59,309 bases of DNA from a virus (Duplodnaviria; Caudoviricetes), in the IMG/VR virus record IMGVR_UViG_3300024891_000004, positions 1 through 59,309 of that record; one strand, 5' to 3'. The position numbers were made by a program, and so were the translations under genes. Shown here piece after piece: positions 27,274 to 59,309 of the stretch; the first letter of the stretch is position 1, and every line of letters starts with the position of its first letter. Below the pieces are notes generated by a model that was not told the origin of the DNA, ran no database searches, and was given only the letters and a program-made list of their open reading frames with translations.

Positions 27274-28334
27274 CGAATTTTCTTGGCGCAATTCTTGATG
27301 CCATAGAAAAAGGTGCGTTTAATTACAGTGTCACCTTTCCGCAGTCAAAACGCCGGTTTGTATTTACCGAAAGCCCTGGCGAAGCAATCACGATTGAAAA
27401 GTATCTGGACGAATGGCTTGAGGCCAAAGAAAAGCAGTTAAAGAAATCCGCATACAACGACTACCGAAAAACAGTTAATCACCTGATTATTCCGCAATTC
27501 AAAGGCAAGCTACTCACAGACGTTAAACGTGTCGATGTTAAAAATTGGGTCAAGGATATGGCCTGCAGCAATAAGCGCATATCCAATATTCTTAGCGTTA
27601 TGCGTACCGCCATGCAGGATGCCGTAGAAGATGAACTGCTTGAACTGAATCCGTTATATGGCTGGACTTACGAGAATAAAGAAGCGCCTAAAAAAGAAAG
27701 TGACGTGCAACCATTCAGCCAGGAAGAACAGTCTGCCATATTAAAGGTGCTGGATGGTCAGGCTAGAAACATGATGCAGTTCTTTTTCTGGACGGGATTG
27801 CGCACCAGTGAATTAGTGGCTTTAGATTGGACGGATATAGATTGGAAGCGCGGCACGATATTTGTAACAAAGGCCATGACGCAGGCATCAAAGAACATTG
27901 CCGAGATACCTAAGACCAGTGCCGGTAATCGGGAAGTCAAAATACTCGCACCGGCAATGCAGGCGTTACTGGATCAGAAGCAATACACCTACCTGAAAAA
28001 TGCCGAGATATTCCAGAACCCTCGCACCTTAGAGCGCTGGACGGGTGATCAGGCCATTAGAAAGAATATCTGGGTGAGTGCATTGAAACTTGCCAAGGTC
28101 AGATACAGACGACCATATCAAACGCGCCATACTTACGCCAGTATGATGCTAACTGCCGGTGAATCTATCGCCTGGTTAGCGCAGCAGATCGGTCATTCTG
28201 ATTGGGGAATGTTGCGTAGAGTGTACGCAAAATATATTAGTGATTCGATACCGGAAGCCGGTAATAAAGCGGTGGAAATGTTTAGCGAAAAAGCTGTCAA
28301 AAAAGCTGTCATTAAAGTGGAAAATCAACCCTAA
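27144..28334 (+). CDS. int: Tyrosine integrase with Arm DNA-binding domain
   Basis: FTYQGVRCRE N-terminus; TGLRTSEL, PKT, YQTRHTYAS, QIGH, VYAKY catalytic motifs. Confidence 0.95.
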   Translation: MGRNGSGIRKASETSYEIAFTYQGVRCRERIKLKPTPTNDKRVTNFLGAILDAIEKGAFNYSVTFPQSKRRFVFTESPGEAITIEKYLDEWLEAKEKQLKKSAYNDYRKTVNHLIIPQFKGKLLTDVKRVDVKNWVKDMACSNKRISNILSVMRTAMQDAVEDELLELNPLYGWTYENKEAPKKESDVQPFSQEEQSAILKVLDGQARNMMQFFFWTGLRTSELVALDWTDIDWKRGTIFVTKAMTQASKNIAEIPKTSAGNREVKILAPAMQALLDQKQYTYLKNAEIFQNPRTLERWTGDQAIRKNIWVSALKLAKVRYRRPYQTRHTYASMMLTAGESIAWLAQQIGHSDWGMLRRVYAKYISDSIPEAGNKAVEMFSEKAVKKAVIKVENQP

Positions 28335-51891: not shown

Positions 51892-53421
51892 TTATTCCTT
51901 AGTGAGTTTATGAAAAGCATCCATCACCTGATCAACACTGATATTAGCCTGGCACAAGGCCACGCCGGACGTACCATATTGCGTACAGGTATCGAATGTA
52001 TAGTGCATCTGGTGGCATGGGTAACATGGTGTATGTTCAGGCTCTAGTGCAATCGTGTTTTCCCAATCACGGGTTAAATTGTGTGCGGAACTGTGCGACA
52101 ACAGGACAATCTTGCCATTTGGTTCAAACGCTACGGCATTGAGTAACCCTGTTTCCGAACCGATCACCATATCCGCAACCTGCGCAAATGCCATTGACTG
52201 CCGCATTGTCCATGCACCGGCACGCTTCACTACCCTAGTTTCGCCTTCCCATCCTTGCTGCAGCATTGCTTCATCTGCACCGCCGACCAGTACCACTTTT
52301 AAATCAGGGTACTGTAACAATACCTTGGCAATCACGTCATCCATCCACGGATAAACCTTGTGAATAGCAGAACCGGACAGCGACCATACAACAACATAAC
52401 CGCCTAATACTTCATACTGTTTTTTTGCCCACGCTACTTCATCATCACTGGCATAAAACAGTTGATCATGCGTTGCGTGCCGCAAATCCGCTATATCGTG
52501 TTGAAACTGTAGATAGTTACAATCTAAATACTTGTGGCGCATTTCCTGCGACCAGTTGAATTGTGTCGTATTAGGCAAGGCCAGCAAGCTACGTTCTACT
52601 GATTCAGACAGGTTTACAAACTTGTCGTATTTTTTGGCAAGGTGCGCCCAGAACTGGCCTAATTCATGGTTTGGTACTTGGTCATTGCCTTGCACCACGA
52701 ACTTATCAATATGCGGGTCGTGTTTGGTCACTTCATAACCCTGTGCTGCGGTATAGAACGTGACGTGATAGCCTAGCCGTTTCAGTCCGGCAATCACACT
52801 GGATGCTTGGATTGCGTCACCATAAGCGCCGTACCTGCAAACTGCGGCCTGTGGTTTAGCCCGTGTTTTTAATACATTTAGCTTACTAAAGTCGCCTTTC
52901 CCTGTGCCGCTTTTCCTGTAAACCTGAAAAAAGCTGTATTCATTACCGGCATTGCGTTCTTCATTGACTAATAACGACCAGTTGCCTGTAAGTTTTAGCA
53001 TAGCCTTTTTAATATCTACCGGCATAAAGTCATGTTTATGATCTAGATTAGCGCCAGGCTGTCCAACATTTGGGTAGTATTCTTTATGCGGCAGGTATAG
53101 AATCAGATAGCCGCCATGCTTAATGACGCGCCACCATTCTTTCAGTGCCGCCTCGTAATCCGTAATATGTTCAAGTAAATGCGAACTAAAAATGAAGTCC
53201 ATGCTGTTATCAGCAAAAATGCTCAAATCCTCGCAGGTATCGACCATTACATCGACACCTTGATTGCCCCAATGATGCCCGTTATCGACACCAATAAAAT
53301 GAGGGAAAGTCTTGAATAGACCGCAACCTAAGTCTAGGCCGCGCCCTGCGGTGTATTCAACAATATCCCATTTGATTTTTGCGGCTTCATTACCTTGTGG
53401 TGCTTTAATATCCCAGACCAT
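51892..53421 (-). CDS. SAM methyltransferase fused to a GT9 (heptosyltransferase-like) glycosyltransferase
   Basis: N-terminal LDLGCG...FSSHLLEH...EWWRVIKHGGYL; C-terminal RYGAYGDAIQ...ADMVIGSETGLLNAV...CYPC...C...C. Confidence 0.88.
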   Translation of the reverse strand: MVWDIKAPQGNEAAKIKWDIVEYTAGRGLDLGCGLFKTFPHFIGVDNGHHWGNQGVDVMVDTCEDLSIFADNSMDFIFSSHLLEHITDYEAALKEWWRVIKHGGYLILYLPHKEYYPNVGQPGANLDHKHDFMPVDIKKAMLKLTGNWSLLVNEERNAGNEYSFFQVYRKSGTGKGDFSKLNVLKTRAKPQAAVCRYGAYGDAIQASSVIAGLKRLGYHVTFYTAAQGYEVTKHDPHIDKFVVQGNDQVPNHELGQFWAHLAKKYDKFVNLSESVERSLLALPNTTQFNWSQEMRHKYLDCNYLQFQHDIADLRHATHDQLFYASDDEVAWAKKQYEVLGGYVVVWSLSGSAIHKVYPWMDDVIAKVLLQYPDLKVVLVGGADEAMLQQGWEGETRVVKRAGAWTMRQSMAFAQVADMVIGSETGLLNAVAFEPNGKIVLLSHSSAHNLTRDWENTIALEPEHTPCYPCHQMHYTFDTCTQYGTSGVALCQANISVDQVMDAFHKLTKE

Positions 53422-53431
53422 AATAGTTCCT

Positions 53432-53461
53432 AAAGAAGGGGCGACACATTGCCGCCCCTTC
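53432..53461 (-). terminator. Hairpin terminator after the decoration gene
   Basis: GAAGGGGCG.../CGCCCCTTC stem followed by T residues. Confidence 0.55.
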
Positions 53462-53478
53462 GTTTAACTATGTCAGCG

Positions 53479-53862
53479 TTAAGCTGTCAAGTCTGAACCT
53501 GGCACAACGTAAGTTTCTACTGCCACTGATAAGGCAATAGATGCGTCAGTACCATGTGCTACCCAGAACTGATCACCTTGCGCTAATGTAATATTGAGCG
53601 CATTGTTTTTAGGTGTAATGGCTGCAGAAGTAATTGCAGACAAGGTAGCGGTTGCGGTTGCTGTACCACTCTTAGTGTACAAAAGCGGCTGCGTCGCTGA
53701 TGTACCGGCGGTATTAACACCCAAAGTAACGGATTTAAGTTTTTGTGCAGTGAATGCCGCAAACTTTTGAGAAACGCCATTTGCGCCTGCTGGTGTACCA
53801 GATGAATAAACAACCGGCACTTGGTAGGCTGGATGGTCGTAGGCTTTATTTTTTACTGTCAT
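53479..53862 (-). CDS. Putative capsid decoration/cement protein
   Basis: 127-aa Thr/Ala-rich beta protein directly after the major capsid gene. Confidence 0.55.
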   Translation of the reverse strand: MTVKNKAYDHPAYQVPVVYSSGTPAGANGVSQKFAAFTAQKLKSVTLGVNTAGTSATQPLLYTKSGTATATATLSAITSAAITPKNNALNITLAQGDQFWVAHGTDASIALSVAVETYVVPGSDLTA

Positions 53863-53940
53863 TTCAGTTTCCTTTATCCTGCACGCCTCTCATACAGGAA
53901 GTTATTTGGCAGCGTGAGTAGGCACGATAAGCCAAGAATG

Positions 53941-53962
53941 AAAAAACCGCCCGAAGGCGGTT
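53941..53962 (-). terminator. Terminator after the major capsid gene
   Basis: AACCGCC-TTCG-GGCGGTT plus T-run. Confidence 0.85.
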
Positions 53963-53967
53963 GTTTG

Positions 53968-55827
53968 TTAGGTTGCTGAACCCCATTTCACGATACGGGC
54001 TTGTGCTGCTAGGGTATGCACCAGACCGAAGCCACCAAGGTAGTACCATGCAACGCCTTTTGAGCGCCCATAGTCACTAGGGATTTTGCCGCGGATTTCT
54101 TCCGGTACGGCAATGCCTTCTGCCACGGTATCTTCACCGAAGAAGTACGCCCAATTTGACAATCCATTTACCCAAGTTTCCTTGGCAACGTTGGTTTGTT
54201 CAACGAAGCGCACGCCTTCATAGCGACCAATCTCACCGTTCATGATCATGGTGAAGCCGGTTTCAACGTATTGATGCACGGCTTCCAAGTCATTTTTCAA
54301 TGTACGGAAAGTTGATGGATGACCAATCGAAAAGTAGTCATCGTTTTGGTAAGGTGGAATGTTGCGTTCCTTCATTACGTCCACGATAGCTTTGATATGG
54401 TTTTTACCCATTGCTACGTTATTGGTTGCTGGCGGTGTACCGTCAGTTGCCAATGTCACGGCAGTTGTGGAAGTGCCTGATGTTGGTGTCACCACCAATG
54501 GTGTCAATGCAAACTGCGCATAAGCAGCAGCATCGAATGCTTTTTTAGCATCGTTTTTCAGCACTTTGTTGATCACTTCTTTAACTGGGTGCTCTGACAA
54601 GTCATCCAATTTACCTGAATACGGACTTTTTTGTTATCGCATGGCTCTTTATCCATACTTCTAACGCTTTCACGTTAGAGCAGACTATATCATCCCTTTC
54701 GGGTAGCGTACTCTTGGGGCTTTACTGTGTGTTCTACACTCCATGCCCTAGTCGTTGAACCTTCCACTAATCCCTTAGTGGCTCGGCTGCTGATTGCCCA
54801 ATCCAATATCTTTTCAAACATTCACGCTTGCCTTTACAGGCTACGTTGTAGTGCTATTGGCTCTTAGGGGTTTCCAGCAATTCTCGCTATTTTCAAGTTT
54901 ACCTGTTTGTGGTAACATGGAAGTTCTCAACTTAGGAGAACGTCATGTCTATATCTAAAGAACAACTCGCCCGTGTAACTGTTGTTTGCAAATGCGGTTG
55001 TGGCGAATCATTTAGTGCTTTTCCTGTTTACAAAAATAAATCAGAAGGCGGCGGTTTGCGAATCCCTGAATATAAACGAGGTCATCATCCTAATTGTAGA
55101 AAGAAACAATTAAGTGGCGACCCTTGGAATAAAGGGTTACGCAAGGAAACAAATCCTTCTGTTGCCAAGCAAGGCGTTCGCGGTGTGGATCATTTTAATT
55201 ATGATCCTGAACAAAACCCCGATTGGTTTTCTAAAGATTTTGATTTTCGTGCTTTTTCAGAAAAATTTGGCACTAAACTTCGTAGCAAAGGCGGTAATAA
55301 GGCTTACGCTAAGTTTCGCAAAGCGATACTTAAACGTGATAACTATACGTGTCAGCACTGCGGAATATCTGACGATATTGGATTTGATGAAGATTCTTTT
55401 CTTCAAGTTCACCATATCGTTTATATCAAGCATGATAGAACCCGTATTTTTGACCCCACTAACGTTGTTACTCTTTGCTTTAATTGTCATTGGATAACTC
55501 ACAAAAGAAAGTAAGTTGCCGCTCTTAATGAATCAGGACGGAGTTACCGTATTCTGTAATAGTCAGTTCACCTTGAGTGATTGTGAAGTTTGTTTCAGGC
55601 ATTACATCGGTTTCAGCCAGTGCGCCACCTTGAGTAGCTACATCGCTGTACACGTTCCAATGGAACTTGTCGCCTTTACCTTTGCCTTGTTGAGTTGCGT
55701 CTTTTGCATCGCAAAATTGACGGAATTTCACCATTGGTTGTACGGCATTGCGCAAAACCTTTGATAAATTGAGTGAGTACATATAACCGCCTAAGCTGTT
55801 AGTACCCCATACTTGTTGACCTGCCAT
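53968..55827 (-). CDS. Major capsid protein, spliced: exon 1 55827-55538, exon 2 54625-53968 (315 aa)
   Basis: Joining ...TAC GGT AAC TCC GT to T CCG TAT TCA GGT AAA gives EYGNSVPYSGKLDDLS in frame (290+658=948 nt); GEIGRYEGVRFVE capsid motif; follows the scaffold gene. Confidence 0.9.
54891..54940 (+). promoter_or_regulatory. Candidate sigma70 promoter and RBS for the intron HNH gene
   Basis: TTTCAA-16-TAACAT with TGn extension; AGGAG 6 nt before ATG 54945. Confidence 0.5.
54945..55514 (+). CDS. HNH homing endonuclease, antisense within the intron
   Basis: CKCGCG N-terminus, PWNKG (NUMOD-like), RDNYTCQHCG...VHHI...NVVTLCFNCH. Confidence 0.9.
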   Translation: MSISKEQLARVTVVCKCGCGESFSAFPVYKNKSEGGGLRIPEYKRGHHPNCRKKQLSGDPWNKGLRKETNPSVAKQGVRGVDHFNYDPEQNPDWFSKDFDFRAFSEKFGTKLRSKGGNKAYAKFRKAILKRDNYTCQHCGISDDIGFDEDSFLQVHHIVYIKHDRTRIFDPTNVVTLCFNCHWITHKRK

Positions 55828-55852
55828 GATTAATACTCCTTATTGATCTTGT

Positions 55853-56806
55853 TTAAACGGGTAAGCCACGCGCTTCACGCATCGCACGGATGGTGTCGGA
55901 TGCAGTTGCTTCGCTGTCTGTGGCTGTTTCAGGCACACTTGTTTTCTGGCTGGCGGCTGGCACATGATCAAGGGCGGCTTTACGGGCTTCCCTGTCATTT
56001 GCTGTTACCGTTACGCCCTTGGCTTTCAGCCATTCGCGTGTGGTATCGCCTGCATAGGTCAAGGCTTCATCCAGCGGTTTACCGTCACGCAACGCTTGTG
56101 CGCGATGGGTATCTGCCATTTGAACCAAGAACGGATCAGTCACAACGTCCTGGTAATTGTCGATAAAAGCCTTCATTGCCACGTCATCCTGCATTTTTTG
56201 ACGCGCACGGTCGGCTACTTGGTCAATGTCAAGTTGTGGTTGCGGAATAGCCTGTTGACGTTCCCCCAATAACTTTTTCACCGCCTCTCTGGTTTTTTCT
56301 TCATCGCCTTCGTACAAGGCACTAACTAACTCATTCGCTTGATCGTCCAGTGAGGATGGATTAGCAGTTGGGTTGTTAGGAATTGCACTTAATGCTTCTT
56401 CTCGCTGGCGTAGTTCTGCTTCTTGCCGGTCAAGTTCTGCATTTCTTCGGGCGACTTCATCCAGCCGTTTTGAGGCGGCTGCGTCCTTTTGATAGACACG
56501 CAACGCCTCTGCCGCTGGCATCAGGTGTTCTTGTCCGTCAATCTTGGTGCGCACCTGATAACTGGCAAGTTCATCCTCGGTCAGTACGTGTGGTGCGCTG
56601 GTATTCTCTGCGGCAGGCTCTGGCGCTGCGGCGGCTTCTGATTTTGGCTCGGCTAGTCCTTGTTCGGCTAACTCGGCTTGGATCACTTCATGATTGTTAT
56701 TAGCGAGTTGTTCCATGAAGTCATAACGGGGATTATGTGAAGCCTGCACCCCTGTTTCTGTTTCGTTTTCCAACACGCCCGATTGGGTAGCGTTATTTTT
56801 AGCCAT
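55853..56806 (-). CDS. Capsid scaffolding protein
   Basis: Acidic coiled coil with KIDGQEH motif and basic C-terminus (MREARGL); between portal and capsid; start revised to 56806. Confidence 0.75.
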   Translation of the reverse strand: MAKNNATQSGVLENETETGVQASHNPRYDFMEQLANNNHEVIQAELAEQGLAEPKSEAAAAPEPAAENTSAPHVLTEDELASYQVRTKIDGQEHLMPAAEALRVYQKDAAASKRLDEVARRNAELDRQEAELRQREEALSAIPNNPTANPSSLDDQANELVSALYEGDEEKTREAVKKLLGERQQAIPQPQLDIDQVADRARQKMQDDVAMKAFIDNYQDVVTDPFLVQMADTHRAQALRDGKPLDEALTYAGDTTREWLKAKGVTVTANDREARKAALDHVPAASQKTSVPETATDSEATASDTIRAMREARGLPV

Positions 56807-56819
56807 TGCTTTACTCCAT

Positions 56820-56846
56820 AAAAAAAGCCACCGGTTAAGGTGGCTT
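56820..56846 (-). terminator. Rho-independent terminator
   Basis: AAGCCACC-TTAACC-GGTGGCTT plus T-run. Confidence 0.75.
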
Positions 56847-56872
56847 GGTTGCAACGTAGCTGAATGCTGCGT

Positions 56873-57166
56873 TTATTCCTGTCTATTCATCTGGTCTAGT
56901 TGTTCTTCACTGGATTGGCCTACAATAAAGGCTTCCTTTAGCCATAATTCAAAGTTTTCTGAACGGGCAATAATGCCTTGCAAGGTTCTGATGCGCTCGG
57001 TCTGTGTCGGGGCTATGCTTTTCAGTTCGTCAATGGCCTGAATCGCATCAGCAGCGGCACGGCCTAACAGGTATTTACCCAAATCAGAATTAAAGAAGGC
57101 TTCAACATCAAAGCCCAAAGCGATTTTCTTTTGAATCTCGTTTAGTTCCTGCTGGTTTTGGCTCAT
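56873..57166 (-). CDS. Small head-assembly protein between portal and scaffold
   Basis: 97 aa, FFNSDLGKYL motif typical of post-portal podovirus proteins. Confidence 0.6.
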   Translation of the reverse strand: MSQNQQELNEIQKKIALGFDVEAFFNSDLGKYLLGRAAADAIQAIDELKSIAPTQTERIRTLQGIIARSENFELWLKEAFIVGQSSEEQLDQMNRQE

Positions 57167-59309
57167 TTGCGTTTGGTTTCCATTGAAGTATCAGGCGGTG
57201 TGGAAAATGCTTCGTGTAATGATCTGCTTGCTGGCGTTGATACCGCTTCTTCTACTCGCTTTTGTAAGGTCTTTGCAGGCTCTTGTTTAGGTGCGGCATC
57301 ACGCTGGCGCTGTTCTTCTGCACGCGCTTTCGCACCTGTCATCAGTTCATGCAGGCCGTCTTTAATGCCTTGCACGATACCGCCGTCTGCAAATTGCTGT
57401 GCGCCTTCCACTTCCTGCGCTTCTTCACCGCCCTGCATCTGTCTTAGCAGTAAGCCAAGTTCATTTAGTTTATTCAGTGTATCTTCACCAAGTAAGGCCA
57501 TTGCCTCTACATTCAGCACGCCTTCGCCTGCAGTTGCCATTACTGGAACGTTATCAGCGGTAGTGGTTGGGCTTACGCCTTGTACCGCACCACCATCCGC
57601 TTTGGCCTGCATTGGATTAACGTATTGCTGTTCTTGCTGTAGGTGTAATTGCTGTGCAAAAGCATCGGCATTCATTGGATTATCAAATTTGCCTAAATGC
57701 TGACCTGACTTAACATACTGCTGAATTGCCGCATCGTTATCGAGAATACCGCTGCCATCGCTGGCTACGGTTGGAATCAGCACTTCATACTGACCATCAT
57801 TGAAACTCATGCTGCGCACGGTACTGATAGAACCGTCTGGGTTATTCACAATAGGACGGTTATTCAGGTCGATATTGCCAGGCTCGATAATGCCGCCATC
57901 AGCTAACGCCTGCACACCATCTGCCGCCGCTGTTTCAATGCCGGTCATCGGGCTTGCTGGTACGGCTGGCTGCAATGGCGAAGTGTTCTGGTTAATATCA
58001 GGCATTGGTGTACCCACGGCAGTCGCCGGTACGTCTGTGGCTTGCACGCCATCACCGGCAATCGGTGTCCAGCCTGCGCCTTTCAATACTTCATCAGCTA
58101 CCGGTGCAACGGCTGGTGTTGCCGCTACAATCTGGCCTGTTTGCATCGCGCTAAACTGTGTTTCCACGTTCTTGCTGACTTTCTGTGACTTGATATAGTC
58201 TGCTTCTGCCAGTAGTTTCGCTACGGTAGCATCACGCACTGCCGGATCAAGTTTCGCATCAAGTGCGGCCTGTAATTCCTGCAATTTCTGTTCAAGTTCA
58301 GCCACACGAGGATCGCCATCAGCATCATTAAAGAAGCGCTGACCATCCTTGTAACCCAATTTACCGAAAATTTCCTTGGTGACTTCTTCAACATTGATTT
58401 TTCTGCCAACACTGGAAGCATCAATTTCAGCCAGGGTACGCATACCCATCGTGAAGCGCTCAAACTGTGCCTGCGGATTAGTAGAACCAACGCCCACATT
58501 GACGCGCACCAACATATTGCGCTCTAGTAATTCATCGGTAATGTCAGAAATACCGTATTTTTCGTATAATTTAGCCTTCGTACCGGCAAAAATAAGGATG
58601 GTCTGGTCAGTTTCATACTGTTGTTCCAGCATCACTAACTGTGTAATAACCTTTTCTGCCCATGTTTCCACGAAAGTACGCAGTTGATACTCACTGATCT
58701 CGTTGGCGCTTTCGCTCAATAGCGTCATGCCGCCCACGGTTTCATTCAGTTTGCGGTTGGATTGCACGCTTGAACCATTGAATGCACCGGCTAAGTCGTC
58801 AAAGTCTAGGTTTAAGCGGTCTTGTTCCTGATAGCTAGAACTTGTTACGTCCGGCGTGTCCAATACCTTCACATCGTCAATATCGTTCATCAATGTCACG
58901 GATGACGGTACATTTCTGGTCAGACTGCGAATATCGACCTGCGCATTGCGCTTGGCAAAGTAACGTTTATTCATCGCGAACTTAACGTTATCAATACGCT
59001 GGTTGGCGATTTCGTTAATTTCCACCTGCAGATCGTGTACCAATTCCACCGGTGCGCTGGTATAAGCCTTGTGTGATTCAATCAGGGCACTACCAAGCGC
59101 AAATGGGCGTTTACCGTGCCAATATTGGTCTTTCAGCGGCGCAGGAGTGCTTAAAACGTGTTCTGTACCTAACGTGTAGTACATATGATCCACGCCATCG
59201 ACTTCAATCACGTTGAAATGCACCCAGATAATCTTGTATTCACTCACATCAGTGTTGTTGTCAGTCGGGTCGGTGCGATTACTACCCTGGCGTGTCTGTC
59301 TGATACTGT
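57163..59309 (-). CDS. Portal protein (5' end outside the window) with C-terminal extension
   Basis: RPF...LQVEINEIANQRIDNV...ETVGGM...VNVGVG P22-like portal motifs; frame stays open to the window end. Confidence 0.88.
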   Translation of the reverse strand, partial: SIRQTRQGSNRTDPTDNNTDVSEYKIIWVHFNVIEVDGVDHMYYTLGTEHVLSTPAPLKDQYWHGKRPFALGSALIESHKAYTSAPVELVHDLQVEINEIANQRIDNVKFAMNKRYFAKRNAQVDIRSLTRNVPSSVTLMNDIDDVKVLDTPDVTSSSYQEQDRLNLDFDDLAGAFNGSSVQSNRKLNETVGGMTLLSESANEISEYQLRTFVETWAEKVITQLVMLEQQYETDQTILIFAGTKAKLYEKYGISDITDELLERNMLVRVNVGVGSTNPQAQFERFTMGMRTLAEIDASSVGRKINVEEVTKEIFGKLGYKDGQRFFNDADGDPRVAELEQKLQELQAALDAKLDPAVRDATVAKLLAEADYIKSQKVSKNVETQFSAMQTGQIVAATPAVAPVADEVLKGAGWTPIAGDGVQATDVPATAVGTPMPDINQNTSPLQPAVPASPMTGIETAAADGVQALADGGIIEPGNIDLNNRPIVNNPDGSISTVRSMSFNDGQYEVLIPTVASDGSGILDNDAAIQQYVKSGQHLGKFDNPMNADAFAQQLHLQQEQQYVNPMQAKADGGAVQGVSPTTTADNVPVMATAGEGVLNVEAMALLGEDTLNKLNELGLLLRQMQGGEEAQEVEGAQQFADGGIVQGIKDGLHELMTGAKARAEEQRQRDAAPKQEPAKTLQKRVEEAVSTPASRSLHEAFSTPPDTSMETKRK

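Follow-up and report, generated by a model that had tools for sequence, protein, structure and literature searches.

Splicing of a major capsid gene has been demonstrated for mycobacteriophage LittleE, a temperate phage of Cluster J, by reverse transcription PCR and by N-terminal sequencing of the protein (Pope et al., 2013, PMC3706429). The LittleE intron is given U and G borders there and an endonuclease gene (gene 14) on the bottom strand, and its authors consider the intron to be presumably mobile and its splicing to be necessarily very efficient. The same article cites a capsid-gene intron in Lactococcus phage Tuc2009, which a table by Tourasse and Kolsto (2008, PMC2504315) lists with the remark '(major head protein)'. 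Here we analyzed IMG/VR record IMGVR_UViG_3300024891_000004, an uncultured Caudoviricetes contig of 59,309 nucleotides (nt), referred to below as the window, in which the major capsid gene is interrupted by 912 nt. We consider it likely, with a probability of roughly 0.88, that this insert is a mobile group I intron with an antisense HNH homing gene in the loop of its P2 helix, and that the capsid gene is restored by self-splicing. We document in silico the identity of the intron, its borders and covarying fold, the conserved antisense open reading frame (ORF), the shared layout in relatives and the existence of intron-plus and intron-minus alleles.

LittleE, temperate as the window phage probably is, likewise has an intron in its major capsid gene, with exon-U/intron-G borders and with the endonuclease ORF on the other strand; it differs in its high-GC actinobacterial host, its capsid family and its insertion site. 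The LittleE intron is about 820 base pairs (bp) long and is described there as 'most likely group I', while its ORF is labelled HNH in one figure legend but described as LAGLIDADG-like in the main text. LittleE splicing was shown by experiment, whereas splicing of the window intron is predicted from sequence. Tuc2009, also a temperate phage, has a group I intron in its major head or capsid gene, but it is a siphovirus of Gram-positive bacteria whose head protein is unrelated. A first-pass annotation, made from the letters of this DNA, had implied that a capsid-gene intron was new; the published Tuc2009 and LittleE cases (PMC3706429, PMC2504315) contradict this. Capsid-gene introns and an opposite-strand endonuclease are thus already published, and the window intron is a well-supported new example. 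Knowledge of how such elements work is unchanged by it; its useful extras are the P2-embedded antisense gene, a two-site hot spot and a coexisting recoded intronless allele. That the phage is temperate, as the annotation also had it, is plausible in view of a tyrosine integrase domain (PF00589, 59.4 bits, 27720-28229 on the plus strand) within a 400-amino-acid (aa) open frame.

The ribozyme core of the window intron is 72-79% identical over 130-170 nt to introns of Staphylococcus, Lactococcus, Bacillus, Enterococcus, Aeromonas and Pseudomonas phages; identities of 77-79% over about 140 nt are reached with Staphylococcus, Lactococcus, Bacillus, Aeromonas and Pseudomonas phages. Those of Bacillus SPO1/SP82, Bastille and Staphylococcus Twort-like phages share with it both a similar core and an HNH-family endonuclease; their endonuclease genes are on the intron sense strand. 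Unlike the window intron, most of the core-matching phage introns are in DNA polymerase genes or in unannotated DNA, and one is in a tail tip hydrolase gene.

The interrupted capsid gene and its intron

On the minus strand, where all exon and intron features described here lie, the window contains ORFs of 100 aa (55827..55525) and 213 aa (from 54609), and the stretch between them is without a long sense ORF. The product of the first exon ends in EYGNS and that of the second starts with PYSGKLDD, so that a single residue is lacking between them. Removal of 912 nt (55537..54626) joins exons of 290 and 658 nt into 948 nt encoding 315 aa, and the first-pass annotation, which had proposed exactly this in-frame removal, was right in both coordinates and arithmetic. 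Exon 1 (55538..55827) starts with the ATG at 55827, comprises 96 codons plus the GT of a split Val codon and ends in U; its product is 95% identical to residues 1-96 of P0002, the closest full-length homologue. Exon 2 (53968..54625) supplies the T completing GTT (Val), followed by 218 codons and the stop. The spliced length equals that of P0002 (315 aa) and of the intronless gene of the viral contigs L058-L061. When the two exon products were aligned with 7 full-length, intronless homologues of 314-315 aa across EYGNSVPY, as the annotation had proposed, the segment GNS-V-PY(S/T) was ungapped in all 7, with one Val at the junction corresponding to the split codon GT|T. In the unspliced frame the reading continues with V-L-I-H into TAA four codons into the intron, and the predicted 100-aa stub was therefore confirmed as well.

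The downstream 213-aa piece served as query in the search for capsid homologues; of 5,911 candidates, 5,680 had E <= 1e-5. Among the best 120, almost every protein has a length of 300-316 aa, and many bear the JGI name 'N4-gp56 family major capsid protein'. P0002, which is 94-95% identical to the window protein, scores 61.5 bits against a cut-off of 60 with TIGR04387 (capsid_maj_N4); the exon 2 product alone, being only part of the protein, gives a partial match of 36.8 bits. PHROG 1357 'major head protein' is matched by this piece as well (E 5.5e-11), with the alignment covering profile positions 133-334 of 356 and the N-terminal third missing. On these matches the interrupted gene is taken to be an N4-gp56-family major capsid gene. 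Gene callers give its coat protein as two orphan fragments, of 100 aa and about 210 aa, and recognition of the intron restores the complete 315-aa gene. The data support that the capsid protein would be producible only after intron removal.

The insert itself contains a match to RF00028 (Intron_gpI) at 54954..54661, with 53.7 bits against a gathering score of 50 (E 7.2e-11, model positions 1-253), and this is the sole Rfam match in the whole window. Related introns score 54.7-92.3 bits with the same model. The covariance-model search put forward in the first-pass annotation thus gave a match above the gathering score, and the P1, P3, P7, P8 and P9 stems listed there for a group I intron are borne out by compensatory changes in related introns. 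In the core (54661..54954), P3 is formed by 54889..54883 with 54710..54704, P4 is at 54880..54874, P7 pairs 54753..54749 with 54687..54683, and P9 occupies 54678..54661. We counted base pairs on four related introns (window, L005 and two from L003) over P3, P4-P6, P7 as a pseudoknot, the hairpin between P7 and P3', P8 and P9. RNAalifold, which does not draw pseudoknots, had wrongly folded the 5' strand of P7 into a hairpin, and P7 was set by hand before counting; a full-intron MAFFT alignment had misaligned the 5' ends of the two insertion-site classes described below, and the counts were not taken from it. Of 63 pairs, 93.9% were paired, as opposed to 30-42% with slid partners, and 34 showed compensatory changes on both sides; the observed values were reached by 0/500 shuffles. 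In the 5-bp P7 pseudoknot, a U-A pair is replaced by C-G in two of the four introns.

The first base of the intron is C55537 and its terminal base G54626. P1 is formed by the exon strand CCGU (55538..55541), in which U55538 is the 5' splice-site U, and by GCGG (55522..55519), with a U-G pair at the splice site. The latter is part of an internal guide sequence, GA-GCGG (55519..55524), whose GA (55524..55523) forms P10 with UC, the first two bases of exon 2. Guide and exon covary, with CCGU/GCGG in the window and L140, CGGU/GCCG in L141-L145 and UGGGU/GCCCG in L005; the splice-site U-G is retained in all P1 variants, and exon-U plus intron-G borders are found in 9/9 related introns. A border shifted by +1 (GTC|) also yields Val, so that the protein sequence by itself cannot decide between the two. 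We prefer the borders given here because of the exon-U/intron-G rule and the P1 pairing, which together single out the same canonical U and G that the first-pass annotation had chosen.

P2 is a long-range helix between bases just after the guide and bases just before P3, and it spans the HNH ORF. Its 5' strand (55499..55515) overlaps the last codons and the stop of the antisense gene, while the opposite, plus strand of its 3' partner (54898..54912) bears a weak sigma70-like match, TTTTCA-17-TAACAT, upstream of HNH. P1 and P2 were analyzed in nine introns with 300 shuffles each, and the duplex search was restricted in span, a version with long flanks having been uninformative. In the window, the duplex (55499..55515 with 54912..54898) has -9.5 kcal/mol and 22/300 shuffles were as low; the corresponding numbers were 0/300 for L142-L145, where the helix is very strong, and 8/300 for L140, 22/300 for L141 and 37/300 for L005, where it is moderate as in the window. 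For L003, the script picked another P1 register, and the resulting duplex was no better than 77/300 shuffles. Because P2 joins the first 40 nt to the core in eight introns (all but L003), we conclude that the whole 912 nt are one intron and not a ribozyme beside an unrelated insert.

The capsid pre-mRNA would self-splice by guanosine attack after U55538 and departure of the terminal G54626, and ligation of the exons would restore GTT (Val97) and the 315-aa coat protein. Other explanations of the insert were tried. An intein was rejected on account of the stop four codons into the insert and of the match to an RNA model, and a group II intron because Rfam gave no such match in the window. Production of the capsid as two polypeptides was rejected in view of the exact split-codon continuity in 9 independent introns.

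Several observations weigh against the insert being a functional mobile intron. The Rfam score is just 3.7 bits over the cut-off, P1 has 4 bp and P10 has 2 bp in the window, and the contig is uncultured with a CheckV completeness of 77%. The best sigma70-like match for the window HNH gene is weak (8/12), with 176/300 shuffles equalling it, and a sigma70 scan of 53400-56000 gave no plus-strand promoter. Finally, four sequencing runs out of 21 listed (X20, X15, X2 and X4) were compared with the window, and no RNA read crosses the exon junction in X20, the sole certain RNA run, which contains one 213-nt contig confined to exon 1 (55583-55793). X15, labelled RNA but probably DNA, yielded mostly conserved-core pieces from other organisms and one contig with a match ending at 55543, with no junction. 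The marginal Rfam score, the short P1 and P10 and the lack of RNA evidence would suit a dead insertion, that is, a ribozyme that no longer splices in a defective prophage with a broken capsid gene. However, every core helix is intact and compensated, and the exons show no frame damage, each encoding protein with 93-95% identity to intact homologues. L140, the closest relative, has the same P1 and P10, and relatives about 95-96% identical from two other studies retain the intron, the HNH gene and both exons. We therefore regard a dead insertion as very improbable and favor a splicing intron.

The antisense HNH gene and its relatives

While correct as to identity and borders, the intron described in the first-pass annotation was incomplete, as an antisense HNH gene taking 570 of the 912 nt had been missed. 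This gene (54945..55514, plus strand, opposite to the intron) encodes 189 aa, is intact, and lies within the P2 loop, where it leaves only 10 nt free in the 580-nt interval separating P1 from the core. A Shine-Dalgarno sequence, AGGAGAA, is present at 54934-54940, four bases 5' of its ATG. The complementary strand folds into a hairpin of the P2 loop, GUUCUC-CUAAGUU-GAGAAC (54923..54941, minus strand), so that the complement of this hairpin bears the HNH ribosome-binding site; an equivalent hairpin is found in L005. The protein matches Pfam PF01844 (HNH) with E 7.8e-8 and 32.8 bits against a cut-off of 21.4, and PHROG HNH families down to 3.7e-16 (phrog_119). The H, N and H residues and both CxxC pairs are invariant in an alignment of HNH relatives, and the ORF is open across close copies, which are 32-62% identical to the window protein. 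Six variant positions are listed in the HNH gene for contigs of X2 and X4 that are 95-96% identical; five of them are third-codon positions, giving four synonymous codons and one V>A change, and 109 further differences over the whole compared stretch are not among these six. Judged from such comparisons, the HNH ORF is not a chance ORF. The window protein is without the middle repeat region of its 226-245-aa relatives, and it gives a weak IscB match in NCBIfam (40.9 bits against a cut-off of 175). No isolate-phage match to the HNH protein was found by tblastn at E <= 1e-8.

With the protein or the alignment as query, HNH relatives were sought in viral contigs, metagenome contigs and species-representative genomes. 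The close set (E <= 1e-15) comprises 16 loci, some of them near-duplicates, of which 14 could be tested for a flanking intron; L139 and L146 could not, being cut by contig ends. In all 14 testable loci (L002-L005, L140-L145, L147 and L219-L221) the HNH gene is directly beside an RF00028 match on the opposite strand, and each of the 16 close loci has fragments of this capsid family, with the break at residue 95 or 97/98. The scan of species-representative genomes with the HNH alignment contributed only three full-length relatives, all on short contigs of metagenome-assembled genomes (L219-L221). Among weaker HNH relatives (L006-L021, L146 and L148-L158) no RF00028 match was found, so that only the close HNH family has the antisense-intron layout.

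The best sigma70-like match on the HNH strand of relatives is always at the homologous place, with the -35 element within the P2 3' strand. In L005 it reads TTGACT-17-TATAAT (11/12, with 2/300 shuffles as good), and in L142 it scores 10/12.

As a separate observation, HEARO RNAs (RF02033, 90-123 bits) were found directly upstream of the distant HNH-domain relatives L010, L013, L015, L017, L019 and L020. We class these as IscB-like loci and not as intron endonucleases, with only the HNH domain in common with the window protein.

Insertion sites and further introns in relatives

The capsid family has two insertion sites 8 nt apart. One, GGT|AAY, lies between G94 and N95 and is occupied in L003, L005, L141, L142 and L144; the other, GT|T inside the Val97 codon, is that of the window, L139/L140, L143, L145 and L147. 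Some relatives carry extra, ORF-less introns in the same capsid gene, near residue 290 in L003 and near residue 276 in L140, and the capsid gene of L144 has three interruptions. ORF-less introns with RF00028 scores of 77-92 bits are located, all on the minus strand, at L003:1770-2101, L140:1355-1603, L144:1398-1617 and L139:1286-1565. The first three are near capsid residues 276-291, and no capsid piece mapped alongside the ORF-less match of L139. The Staphylococcus phage Twort gene orf142 reportedly contains three group I introns. Relatives of the window gene resemble it in having several introns per gene (two in L003 and L140, three interruptions in L144), whereas the window gene is a different one with a single intron.

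We also noticed in L144 an interruption of about 245 nt at capsid residue 36 (L144:3413-3654, minus strand). It has U...G borders and R/S-like motifs, but Rfam gives nothing for it at E <= 0.1, and it may represent a small group I intron that escapes the model.

A search with the 100-aa stub gave 158 short relatives. Among the 120 listed, 30 break after GNSV and 25 after G94; of the others, 41 read on beyond the site, 12 diverge upstream of it, 7 stop earlier and 5 are unanchored. A few of these 55 breaks are doubtful, since P0233 simply ends, P0124 continues as a variant and P0136 is artefact-like. The capsid family is common in metagenomes, and 55 of the 120 listed short relatives break exactly at one of the two sites. 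The loci vary naturally around a single gene: the two sites are separated by 8 nt, a gene has one, two or three introns, and recoded alleles without an intron coexist with interrupted ones (see below). Such a series would be usable for the study of homing endonuclease/target co-evolution and of how an essential, very highly expressed late gene tolerates a ribozyme. One stub, P0126 (108 aa, breaking after G94), has an NCBI name from the genome of Aromatoleum anaerobium, on a 716-kb contig, and may stem from a cultured bacterium's prophage in which the capsid gene is interrupted.

Intronless alleles and probable mobility

Capsid genes without an intron are the rule. The gene is uninterrupted in 80/80 of the best related viral-contig genes and in 40/40 isolate-phage records of the capsid family. 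Hence no isolate phage with such an intron is present among these 40 records, and a literature search turned up nothing on introns in capsid genes of the N4-gp56 type. The intron is a minority state, on a very rough estimate in 1% of clusters, and the gene does not require it.

Both allelic states were recovered from sequencing runs. In X4, from soil, a 7-kb contig of about 95% identity spans the two exons together with the intron and its HNH gene. The DNA run X2 contains an intron-bearing contig together with a contig that jumps from 54612 to 55544, skipping 931 nt and having 19 other letters in their place, i.e., a net 912 nt less; this allele is represented by one contig with 27 nt on its shorter side and a depth of 13.4. 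The 19-nt replacement encodes the same NSVPYSG with all seven codons different. The closest intronless viral contigs, L058-L061, have this same 19-nt version, AAT AGC GTG CCT TAY AGC/ACC GGx, where the window has AAC TCC GT|T CCG TAT TCA GGT. Between the window and L058-L061, the 19 positions from -6 to +13 include 9-10 differences, every one synonymous, while there are 0 mismatches in -29..-7 and +14..+36, against a background divergence of about 10%. The window version of the 19 nt is what P1 and P10 require, and it resembles the intronless sequence of more distant lineages such as L066, L109 and L110. Two explanations fit this pattern: homing with a short donor exon tract, or escape of the nearest intronless alleles by synonymous change.

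The occurrence in one run of intron-plus contigs and of a recoded allele shorter by exactly 912 nt fits a mobile element. The antisense HNH gene, the presence/absence polymorphism, the recoded target and the many insertion variants together argue for a selfish mobile intron that needs efficient splicing. Beyond splicing in vivo, this predicts expression of the HNH gene and a target specificity of its product. The HNH gene would be transcribed separately from the late capsid message, its protein would cut intronless capsid alleles of co-infecting relatives near GNSVPY, and repair of the break would copy the intron in, along with a few flanking exon bases.

Alternatively, the intron might be real and the HNH gene a separate invader or an inactive passenger, with homing lost and the recoded site stemming from ordinary recombination between lineages. 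The weak promoter match of the window gene, the missing middle repeat region and the lack of an isolate-phage homologue at E <= 1e-8 are compatible with this. On the other hand, HNH gene, intron and capsid gene are associated in 14/14 testable relatives, even at 32% identity, no catalytic residue varies, the listed variants are mostly synonymous, and presence and absence are found in one sample, all of which makes a passenger HNH gene unlikely.

The first-pass annotation had also proposed that capsid output depends on splicing and that splicing could act as a timing or condition gate. The dependence stands, in that a capsid is expected only after removal of the intron. For the gate we found no evidence, and the pattern is that of a selfish element. 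Under such regulation, splicing would be tuned by time or condition and the ribozyme would control capsid output, possibly also with antisense HNH RNA that base-pairs to the P2 loop. An interaction of the sense and antisense RNAs is conceivable, the HNH gene being antisense and relatives such as L005 and L142 having a sigma70-like promoter at the homologous place, and condition-dependent splicing of a polymerase intron is mentioned in a paper on Pseudomonas phage LUZ24. However, the intron is dispensable, judging from the uninterrupted genes of viral contigs and isolates, a near-identical intronless allele coexists with it in X2, and nothing sensor- or switch-like was seen. A regulatory gate thus appears quite improbable compared with a selfish mobile intron.

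A more far-reaching version of the mobile-intron reading would make GNSVPY the hot spot of an ongoing contest. At least two intron lineages 8 nt apart would carry antisense HNH genes with promoter and ribosome-binding site built into the P2 helix and loop, and intronless alleles would escape by synonymous recoding. Antisense HNH transcription and capsid splicing would be mutually exclusive, with the element timing endonuclease versus late capsid expression. Taken as a whole, we find this scenario rather doubtful.

Lastly, we examined the surroundings of the capsid gene, which lies among other minus-strand genes. Just 3' of its stop codon is a terminator-like hairpin followed by a T run (53945..53962, minus strand). 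Directly downstream is a 127-aa gene (53479-53862, minus strand) without a family match, and further downstream a 509-aa methyltransferase (51892-53421, minus strand) with a faint glycosyltransferase-9 match. On the other side, the gene at 55853-56854 is without a significant family match and probably encodes a scaffold protein; it is next to the gene for a portal protein of the SU10 portal family (PF23899, 2.5e-22), located at 57163-59247 on the minus strand.

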